DNA from: Vogesella urethralis
GTDB taxonomy: Bacteria > Pseudomonadota > Gammaproteobacteria > Burkholderiales > Chromobacteriaceae
NCBI RefSeq assembly: GCF_007644045.2
Contig: NZ_VMDW02000090.1
Span: forward strand, 7,762 to 31,761
Length of the DNA stretch: 24,000 bases
Direction: 5' to 3'
In this document: positions 14,149 through 16,404 of the stretch, piece by piece
How positions within the stretch are numbered: the stretch's first letter is position 1
Layout of the letters: the number at the start of each line of letters is the position of its first letter
The notes under the pieces: model-generated
Database searches by the model: none
Told to the model about the DNA's origin: nothing
What the model saw: only the letters and a program-made list of their open reading frames with translations
Position numbers and translations under genes: made by a program

Positions 14149-15810
14149 TTGCTGCTCGTCAGCGCCGGCCAGCAACTCACGCTGAGCAGCGGTGGCGATA
14201 CCACGCTGCGAGGTGCCGTCGCGAGCGGGCAGCGTGTTGCCGGCGACATCGGCGGCCAACTACGCATCGACAGCCTGCAAGACAGCAGCCGCTACGACAG
14301 CCGCCAGCAGAACGCCGGCGTTAGCATCGCCGCCGGGACGGGGAGCGCCAGCGGTAGCATCAGTGCCGGCAACACCCGCATCGATAGCGACTACCTGAAC
14401 GTGGCCGAACAAAGCGGCCTGAAAGCCGGCGACGGCGGCTTCCAGCTCACGGTAAAAGGCGACACCACCCTCAGCGGCGGTGTCATCGCCAGCAGCGACG
14501 CCGCCGTACAAGCCGGCGTCAACCGGTTGGACACCACGGCCACCCACCTCGGCGACCTACAAAACCAGGCCAGCTATAAGGCCAGCGGCTACAGCGTCAA
14601 CGTCGGCGTCAGCAGCGGCAAACCCAGTGCAAGCGCCGGCATCGGGCAAGACAGCGGCAGCGCTGCCTCCGACACCCGCGCCGGTATCAGCGGTATCGCC
14701 GGCAACAGCAGCGTGCGCAGCGGCGACGCCGAAACCGGCATCGCCAACCCGTTCGACGCCCAGCGCGTGGCGGCCAACGTGGGGGCCCAGGTCGCCATCA
14801 CCGAAGAATTCGGCCGCCAGGCCCCGCGTGCGTGGGCCGACTTTGCCCAGGCGCAGTACCAGGCAGCGCAAGCCAGCGGCAACGCCGAGGACGCCGCCAA
14901 ATGGGCCGAAGGCGGCGCCTACCGCGTTGCCGGCCATACCCTGCTGGGCGGGCTGTCTGGCGGGGTGGCCGGGGCTGCCGGCGCCGTCAGCAGCGCCAGC
15001 CTGATGCCCAAGCTGGGCGAGCAACTGGACAGCAGCGATCTGCCCGCCGCCGTCAAGCAAGCCATTGGCATGGTGGCCAGCGCCACGCTGGGGGCGGTCA
15101 GCGGCGGTACCGCCGGCGCTGCGATGGGGCTGAATGTGGACGTCAACAACCGGCAGTTGCATCCGGATCAGGTACGTCTGGTTCAAACACAAGCCAAAAA
15201 GCTGGCCGGCCAGCAAGGCCTGACGGCAGCCGAGTGGGAAAAACGCCTGCTCACGCAGCTGGCGTACCAGAATAGCGAAATGTACGTCCGCTACGGCAAC
15301 GACCCGCAAGCCGAAGCCATCCTGACCACCCTGCAAAGTCAAAGCGGCGTGCAGATGGACTACCGCGCCACGGCGGCCTACCGTAACGACGCGCTGAACT
15401 TGCAATACCTGCCGCAGCTCACCCAAGCTTATCAGCAGCTACCGCCGCTGAATGGCAGCATGAGCCAAGCACAATTCGCCCGCTACGCCGGGCTGCTATC
15501 TGGCGATTTCACGCGTATCCCGCCTACCGAGCACGTTCAGCAGCTGCAAAGTGAATACCAAACCACGCTCAAGCAGCAGTTGGCGCAAGAACATGCAGGG
15601 CAAAGTGCTGGTGGTCAGGCATTACAGTTGGCCGCACGGCTGGAGGTGCTGAACAAATTGCTGGCCACCGCCGAGTACGCGGCGGTACGCAGTGGCGCCA
15701 TCAGCGAAAGCGAAGCCAGTGCCATGCAAAGGGCGATGGCAGCGGGTATGCTGGTACCCAGCCAGGGGGTGAATGCCAAACCGCAGGGCGTACCGCCTGC
15801 CAAGGGGTAG
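14149..15810 (+). pseudogene. Orphan cdiA-CT module 1, 5' part (conserved pretoxin region + variable CT N-terminal domain), ending at an in-frame TAG
   Basis: 14163-15167 is a 1005-bp ungapped copy of cdiA 10473-11477, running through VDVNNRQLHP. A unique ~215-codon segment follows (DQVRLVQTQAKKLAG...). There is no start codon or secretion region of its own. A TAG at 15808-15810 is in the same frame as the next ORF. Confidence 0.8.
14163..15167 (+). repeat. Direct repeat R1, copy b (orphan module 1)
   Basis: It has the same length (1005 bp) and the same reading frame as 10473-11477. Both copies end exactly after CGGCAGTTGCATCCGGA (RQLHP). Confidence 0.9.
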
Positions 15811-16404
15811 GTGGTTGCGCCGGAGGGGCAGAAGCCGATAGCTGATAAAGCAGAGCAATCAGCACCTGTTATGCCGGCAGCGGAGCAGATTGCTGGCACA
15901 AAGCCTGCATCAAACACATCTGGCAAAGTGGACAAGGTAGAAGTGCTGTTTGGTCAGACTTTTGCCAGTATTCCCTTGTCGCACACTGCCGGCAGGCAGG
16001 ATGGGGATTTGGGTGAAACCTTGGCGTTGCAGCTGCTAAACGAAAAAACCACGCTGAAGTTTCAGCCTTTGCAAAACGCCAGTGGCCACGGTTGTGATGG
16101 CTGCGCTGTGGCAATTCACGGCGATACCATTACCGTGGTGGTGATGGATGCCAAGTCGTCCCAGATGGGTGTTGGTGGGGCGAAAAATACGGCGGGGGAT
16201 CCGGCGGAACGGTTGAATGGATGGCTACAGAATGCTTCTATTTCAGGAGATAAAGCCACACCAGAAAACCAAGTACTGGCAAAGGCAATCCAAAAAGCAT
16301 TGGATAGCCAGGCTAAAGTGCAGGGCATAACTATTAAAGTAGGAATACCAGCACCAGGTACCACGGGTGCTGCAACATTCAAGGTAGAACCATGGCCGAA
16401 GTAA
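15811..16404 (+). CDS. PD-(D/E)xK (restriction-endonuclease-fold) nuclease-like toxin domain of orphan module 1
   Basis: It is in the same frame as 14149-15810. After a P/A/Q/K-rich linker come GE69TLALQLL ... SGHGCD96GCAV ... ITVVVMD113AK115SSQ, the E...D...(D/E)xK arrangement typical of Hjc/REase-fold nucleases and several CdiA-CT nucleases. Confidence 0.65.
   Translation: MVAPEGQKPIADKAEQSAPVMPAAEQIAGTKPASNTSGKVDKVEVLFGQTFASIPLSHTAGRQDGDLGETLALQLLNEKTTLKFQPLQNASGHGCDGCAVAIHGDTITVVVMDAKSSQMGVGGAKNTAGDPAERLNGWLQNASISGDKATPENQVLAKAIQKALDSQAKVQGITIKVGIPAPGTTGAATFKVEPWPK

Follow-up and report, generated by a model that had tools for sequence, protein, structure and literature searches.

An orphan cdiA-CT toxin module in Vogesella urethralis, very probably disabled by a single amber codon, with its immunity gene retained

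We report that the first orphan toxin module behind a cdiB-cdiA-cdiI locus of Vogesella urethralis is very probably a cdiA-CT that was disabled by a nonsense codon and whose immunity gene has been retained, i.e. ordinary decay of an element of known kind. The DNA analysed (hereafter the window) is a stretch of 24,000 nucleotides (assembly GCF_007644045.2, contig NZ_VMDW02000090.1, positions 7,762 to 31,761 of the forward strand). A silenced toxin module with a kept immunity gene was also what the original prediction, made from the letters of the window, had proposed, and it is supported by a sense codon at the corresponding position in relatives and by an intact immunity gene. The part concerning the kept immunity gene stands as it was, while the silencing needs refinement: start signals are not visible in the orphan to begin with, and what the TAG codon disables is the potential of the module after recombination and not a current product.

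Several toxin and immunity modules are stacked downstream of cdiB and cdiA, and the first orphan behind cdiBAI (14157-17414) consists of a pretoxin block, a VDVNN motif, an entry region, a linker, a toxin and an immunity gene. The features referred to below are the following (L015, L016 and L011 are relatives and G004 is a congener).

1694-3457, forward strand: cdiB, two-partner-secretion outer-membrane transporter (Pfam ShlB, 1e-100; POTRA_2, POTRA_3)
3472-12540, forward strand: full-length cdiA, 3022 aa (Pfam ESPR, TPS, Fil_haemagg, Fil_haemagg_2)
10467-11477, forward strand: cdiA copy of a direct repeat of ~1 kb, candidate recombination substrate (repeat search; L015 979-1989 aligns to both copies)
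14157-15135, forward strand: orphan copy of the cdiA pretoxin region (direct repeat; Pfam Fil_haemagg_2)
15136-15150, forward strand: VDVNN pretoxin boundary motif of the orphan
15151-15807, forward strand: N-terminal CT region, presumed cytoplasm-entry domain, 219 aa, no Cys (80-96% identical in relatives)
15808-15810, forward strand: TAG nonsense codon (CAG, Gln, in L015, L016 and L011)
15811-15914, forward strand: Pro/Ala/Gln/Lys-rich interdomain linker, predicted to be disordered (pLDDT <50 for residues 1-35)
15915-16404, forward strand: toxin domain, about 162 aa, PD-(D/E)xK-like by motif only (nucleotide identity to G004; alignments; AF2 model)
16392-17414, forward strand: immunity gene, intact, 340 aa (own ATG; 14-member cluster of 303-340 aa)

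In the resident cdiA the VDVNN pretoxin motif is located at 11446, and its own CT comprises 359 aa. The orphan sits downstream of cdiB-cdiA-cdiI (as judged from the Pfam matches of cdiB and cdiA and the module start at 14157), keeps the cdiA pretoxin homology and VDVNN, and diverges thereafter. The repeat by which the module would be grafted onto cdiA is real: orphan positions 14157-15167 and cdiA positions 10467-11477 form a direct repeat within the window, 1 kb in length with 94-95% identity. Between the resident cdiI and the orphan, at 13014-14070, there is a headless Toxin-deaminase (PF14424, 1e-21) fragment followed by a 182-aa ORF, and this pair also precedes the intact orphan of L015 (about 84% identity).

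At the site of interest the window reads ...GCC AAG GGG TAG GTG GTT GCG..., with TAG at 15808-15810 and GTG at 15811-15813. The TAG is the sole interruption in a frame of 752 codons (14149-16404) and alone parts ORF 14149-15810 (553 aa) from ORF 15811-16404 (197 aa), so that the reading of two ORFs in one frame separated by a single stop is borne out by the sequence and by translation of that frame. Counted from VDVNN at 15136, 219 residues lead to the TAG and 197 lie beyond it, i.e. about 417 in total, in agreement with the continuous CT of ~415 residues that had been foreseen. The stop closes the entry region and precedes the toxin/immunity cassette shared with G004 by about 105 nt.

That the true base at 15808 is C, the orphan CT being intact and the TAG a sequencing or assembly error, is highly improbable. 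The relatives do differ from the window by one base at this position, but TAG is present in three Logan assemblies from three SRA runs (SRR11582150, SRR11582146 and SRR23684489; ...AAGGGGTAGGTGG...), which were made independently of the deposited genome, and a substitution outside a homopolymer is atypical of assembly mistakes. Over about 2.5 kb (window 15076-17696) the Logan contigs are 99.96-100% identical to the window and each encodes the exact 197-aa product. An error had been ranked as a less likely alternative from the start and is further weakened by these three assemblies. The three contigs represent essentially one strain, and they replicate the base call but not the lineage; the TAG is known from one lineage, in whose population a sense allele may persist as a minority. 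Contig L013 was considered as a separate lineage and rejected, its single mismatch being situated at the contig edge (15141).

To find relatives, the frame was read through (TAG=Q) and used in a HMMER search of 1.84 billion protein representatives, followed by cluster and contig look-ups. The entry region had no match in 68 genomes of the same family, and the relative search gave five informative relatives: L015, P0124, L016, L011 and L017. L015, a metagenome contig, is collinear with window 13179-16485 (88.7% identity) and encodes an uninterrupted orphan of 754 aa (P0122; ...GVPPAKG-Q-VVAPEGQKPIADK...) with CAG at the site; across the 107-nt linker (15808-15914) the two sequences are 99.1% identical and C/T at 15808 is the sole difference. 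P0124 is a VDVNN-type CdiA of 3114 aa from a Vogesella MAG, in which entry region, linker and toxin are present in one protein, with Gln at the amber site as read from the protein sequence. L016 and L011 carry the same entry region with about 95% nucleotide identity up to window position 15815, and both have CAG at the site; past the entry region they continue into another toxin, of 141 aa, with a 78-aa immunity gene. In L017 the entry region is 80% identical and is joined to an EndoU toxin.

Comparison of orthologous loci at 15808, which had been proposed as a check, thus gave a sense codon (CAG in L015, L016 and L011; Gln in P0124), and neither a stop nor a two-gene split at the amber site was found in any relative compared. 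These sequence comparisons therefore indicate an uninterrupted CT with a Gln codon at this site as the ancestral state, and a change from C to T that created the nonsense codon of the window. An origin of the TAG as a recombination scar at the cassette border was rejected, since the same fusion is present with Gln in L015 and P0124 and must be older than the mutation.

L016 and L011 show two further features. In L016 (771-1449) the 141-aa toxin domain and its 78-aa partner, which had no Pfam or NCBIfam family match, fill the place of the cassette between the same flanks. L016 represents the intact version of a module that is broken in L011, where a 7-bp deletion between CAAAG repeats (L011 211-220, corresponding to window 15333-15339) frameshifts the orphan entry region while the CAG is kept; this is an independent inactivation of a related orphan.

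The orphan frame opens at 14125, its first candidate start is TTG at 14149, and no Shine-Dalgarno-like sequence was seen upstream of this TTG. Orphan CTs without initiation signals are known from other bacteria, and orphan cdiI genes have been reported to be expressed and protective (PMC3150448; review PMC9086364). With respect to its layout the module is like the orphan cdiA-CT/cdiI modules of E. coli EC93 and EC869 (Poole et al. 2011, PMC3150448), which also form a stacked array behind cdiB-cdiA-cdiI, keep a cdiA pretoxin stretch and the motif with no visible translation start, and have an immunity gene with its own start next in line. It differs from these in that its motif is VDVNN and not VENN, that the toxin frame has a nonsense codon and that its toxin and immunity families match no Pfam/NCBIfam model. 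The literature also describes an orphan rhs-CT/rhsI module, that of Yersinia pseudotuberculosis IP32953, whose frame is interrupted by a stop (PMC3150448). The window resembles it in that a displaced toxin module is broken by an in-frame stop and an immunity gene comes next; however, the IP32953 module belongs to Rhs/T6SS and has its stop in the retained core, whereas the module of the window belongs to CDI and has its stop between the entry and toxin domains.

Given that the frame continues perfectly past the TAG, a full-length CT might in principle be made by programmed amber readthrough or suppression. This is exceedingly unlikely. None of the 53 tRNAs found by ARAGORN in the 157-contig assembly has a CUA anticodon, TAG is a common terminator that ends 501 of the 2104 open frames with 400 or more codons in the genome (about 24%), and the relatives have an ordinary Gln codon, which argues against a conserved recoding site; moreover, the orphan is expected to be untranslated altogether. 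In short, the stop is not conserved in relatives, and neither a suppressor tRNA nor a reassigned TAG was found in the genome; suppression, placed among the less likely alternatives at the outset, is weakened by the lack of a CUA tRNA and by the common use of TAG. ARAGORN also listed one irregular tRNA-like gene whose anticodon has two bases, 'gt' (genome G000, contig position 28636-28711); this gene is not an amber suppressor.

Alternatively, the stop could mark a genuine two-gene arrangement, in which the 197-aa product is made separately from GTG 15811 (or ATG 15869) and would act inside the cell with the immunity protein as a toxin-antitoxin-like pair, thereby stabilising the array. The stop and a start are adjacent, AAGGGG is present 3 nt ahead of the GTG as had been pointed out, the toxin domain is undamaged and a gene caller annotated products of 177 aa and 197 aa. 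Even so, we regard this arrangement as very unlikely: the spacing of 3 nt is poor, AAGGGG-CAG-GTG lies inside the continuous ORFs of L015 and L016 where it encodes the junction K-G-Q-V, and an upstream frame without visible start signals offers termination-reinitiation nothing to couple to. A split at the amber site occurs in no relative, and the free-standing Pseudomonas ORFs are 5'-truncated remnants and not conserved whole-domain genes. In the continuous ORFs the GTG encodes the conserved Val of the Gln-Val-Val junction and is not an evolved start, which makes a separate gene unlikely, and a separately initiated gene, which had been given a low rank before, now ranks lower still as no two-gene arrangement is found in relatives. 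The related proposal that the amber codon itself created a free-standing, addiction-module-like intracellular toxin and immunity pair (start GTG 15811 or ATG 15869) has a marginally smaller probability; if true, such a pair would represent a route from a polymorphic-toxin cassette to a TA system.

The sequence beyond the TAG encodes a domain that shares 91% identity with the C-terminal end of an open frame of 2949 aa in the congener G004 and has 88 database relatives; the frame is therefore not open by chance. At the DNA level the similarity to G004 runs from 15915 to 17405 (95.4% nucleotide identity) and covers the toxin and immunity cassette. In the G004 frame the same toxin domain comes last, after a VENN motif and another entry region that contains Cys; hence, judged by sequence, the same cassette serves two CdiA classes, VDVNN and VENN. 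The pair occurs in Vogesella, in other Neisseriaceae and in many Pseudomonas.

Alignments of 19 and 21 sequences show E69, D96, D113 and K115 (D113-A-K115) to be invariant, and all four are kept in the window, i.e. the toxin domain has the E...D...(D/E)xK arrangement of the PD-(D/E)xK motif. In an AF2 model of the 197-aa product the mean pLDDT is 76, with residues 36-197 mostly above 78; residues 1-35 after the TAG have pLDDT <50 and are predicted to be disordered, which fits an interdomain linker. Neither the entry part (15151-15807), the toxin part nor the immunity part had a match in Pfam, NCBIfam or PDB in sequence and profile searches. Foldseek of the toxin model against PDB gave no significant match (best E = 0.14), and the weak, non-significant matches were mostly PD-(D/E)xK enzymes (HincII, Hjc, cap-snatching endonucleases and SfsA). 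Because no Foldseek match was significant, the assignment of the toxin domain as a nuclease is kept as a reasonable inference from the motif. The class for comparison is that of the PD-(D/E)XK CdiA-CT toxins (E. coli TA271, Y. pseudotuberculosis YPIII, B. pseudomallei 1026b and E479; PMC9086364). The invariant Glu...Asp...Asp-x-Lys set of the window (E69, D96, D113, K115) is comparable to E187/D214/D223/K242 of Bp1026b (PMC9086364), and as in this class a predicted helix is followed by strands and the domain is C-terminal to an exchangeable entry domain. It differs from these toxins in that sequence searches detected no similar PDB chain and Foldseek gave nothing significant, and in contrast to the solved pairs the immunity protein is far larger (340 aa).

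Between the window and G004 the toxin domain has 16 synonymous and 6 non-synonymous differences (dN/dS 0.11), and it has no second lesion beyond the TAG. The low dN/dS, the lack of further lesions and the intact putative catalytic residues suggest that the stop is young relative to the divergence from G004 (dS about 0.15), i.e. that the lesion looks recent.

For the immunity gene there is a separate ATG (16392), which overlaps the toxin end by 13 nt and is preceded 7 nt upstream by AAGG as a plausible ribosome-binding site, and the 340-aa frame of the gene is intact and conserved. It differs from G004 by 34 synonymous and 11 non-synonymous changes (dN/dS 0.09). A promoter scan of 13900-17600 found no sigma-70-like promoter; by analogy with E. 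coli EC93 the orphan immunity gene is presumably expressed.

The conservation relative to L015 is uneven: the N-terminal half of the toxin (15915-16160) has 96% nucleotide identity, while the value falls to 71% in the C-terminal half (from 16161) and to 69% where the immunity gene begins. Another relative, L007, matches the immunity gene only from 16825 onward. Region 16161-16825 looks like a co-varying specificity patch that would reach from the tail of the toxin across the N-terminal third of its immunity protein.

In a Pseudomonas sp. (L018:3001-4373; GCA_024584215.1) a headless toxin remnant of 129 aa directly follows a terminator-like hairpin, and it is followed by an intact immunity homologue of 332 aa that is 57% identical to that of the window; the cluster comprises 117 member sequences across Pseudomonas. 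Toxin decay with the immunity gene kept therefore recurs for the toxin family of the window.

The relatives of the entry region (P0140/L016, P0122/L015 and P0141/L017) are 80-96% identical, and the region is joined to three toxins, namely the domain of the window, the 141-aa domain and the EndoU domain. The modular CdiA-CT entry domains of Willett et al. 2015, as far as they are presented in PMC9086364, likewise combine one N-terminal CT region with several toxins; here, conversely, one toxin domain is also present on a different, Cys-containing entry region. Disulfide-forming Cys are common in CdiA entry domains (PMC9086364), and against the entry domains described there the presumed entry region of the window is cysteine-free. 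A comparison with L002 gave four Cys in the alternative VENN-type entry region and none in 15151-15807.

Taken together, the data are consistent with the following course of events. The ancestral functional form would have been one continuous CT, such as still ends a full-length CdiA in another Vogesella, and one C-to-T transition in the lineage of the window would have turned a Gln codon at the border between entry region and linker into TAG. With no start signals to be seen, the orphan probably was untranslated already, and the mutation therefore probably neutral. The effect of the mutation would be latent: recombination across the 1-kb repeat with cdiA would remove the deaminase pair together with the resident CT and its cdiI, and would give a toxin-less CdiA that ends after ...GVPPAKG. 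The immunity gene has presumably been kept because it protects against neighbours that deploy the toxin, for example the congener with the near-identical toxin/immunity pair.

Selection for the nonsense mutation is a further option, and a very doubtful one. The stop could disarm a cassette whose recombination deletes cdiI and thereby exposes the recombinant to sibling toxin, or it could permit an adhesion-only CdiA, and its position at the border of entry region and linker, at most 6 nt from the point where relatives with other cassettes diverge, would suit such a role. This position is unremarkable, however, as a single step would turn 125 of the 417 CT codons into a stop and Gln is frequent in the region; moreover, the mutation is present in one lineage only, and the orphan of L011 is broken elsewhere (by the 7-bp deletion), as random decay predicts.

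With neutral decay as the preferred reading, the finding is by itself of little consequence and its by-products are more useful. It provides a clean, well-documented case of an orphan CDI toxin cassette that decays through one nonsense change next to an immunity gene under purifying selection, in line with the view that orphan arrays are libraries of immunity genes. Novelty is limited to the unannotated families, i.e. the toxin family (PD-(D/E)xK-like by motif) with its unusually large immunity family of 330-340 aa and the N-terminal CdiA-CT region, which lacks cysteines and is exchanged between at least three toxins. As for annotation, 14149-16404 is better described as one pseudogene than as two hypothetical proteins.

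Finally, the PoNi-type immunity gene of the last module of the array (19328-20208) consists of two overlapping ORFs in different frames, with PoNi_N in 19328-19723 and PoNi_C in 19666-20208; it is probably a frameshifted gene and as such a further sign of array decay.
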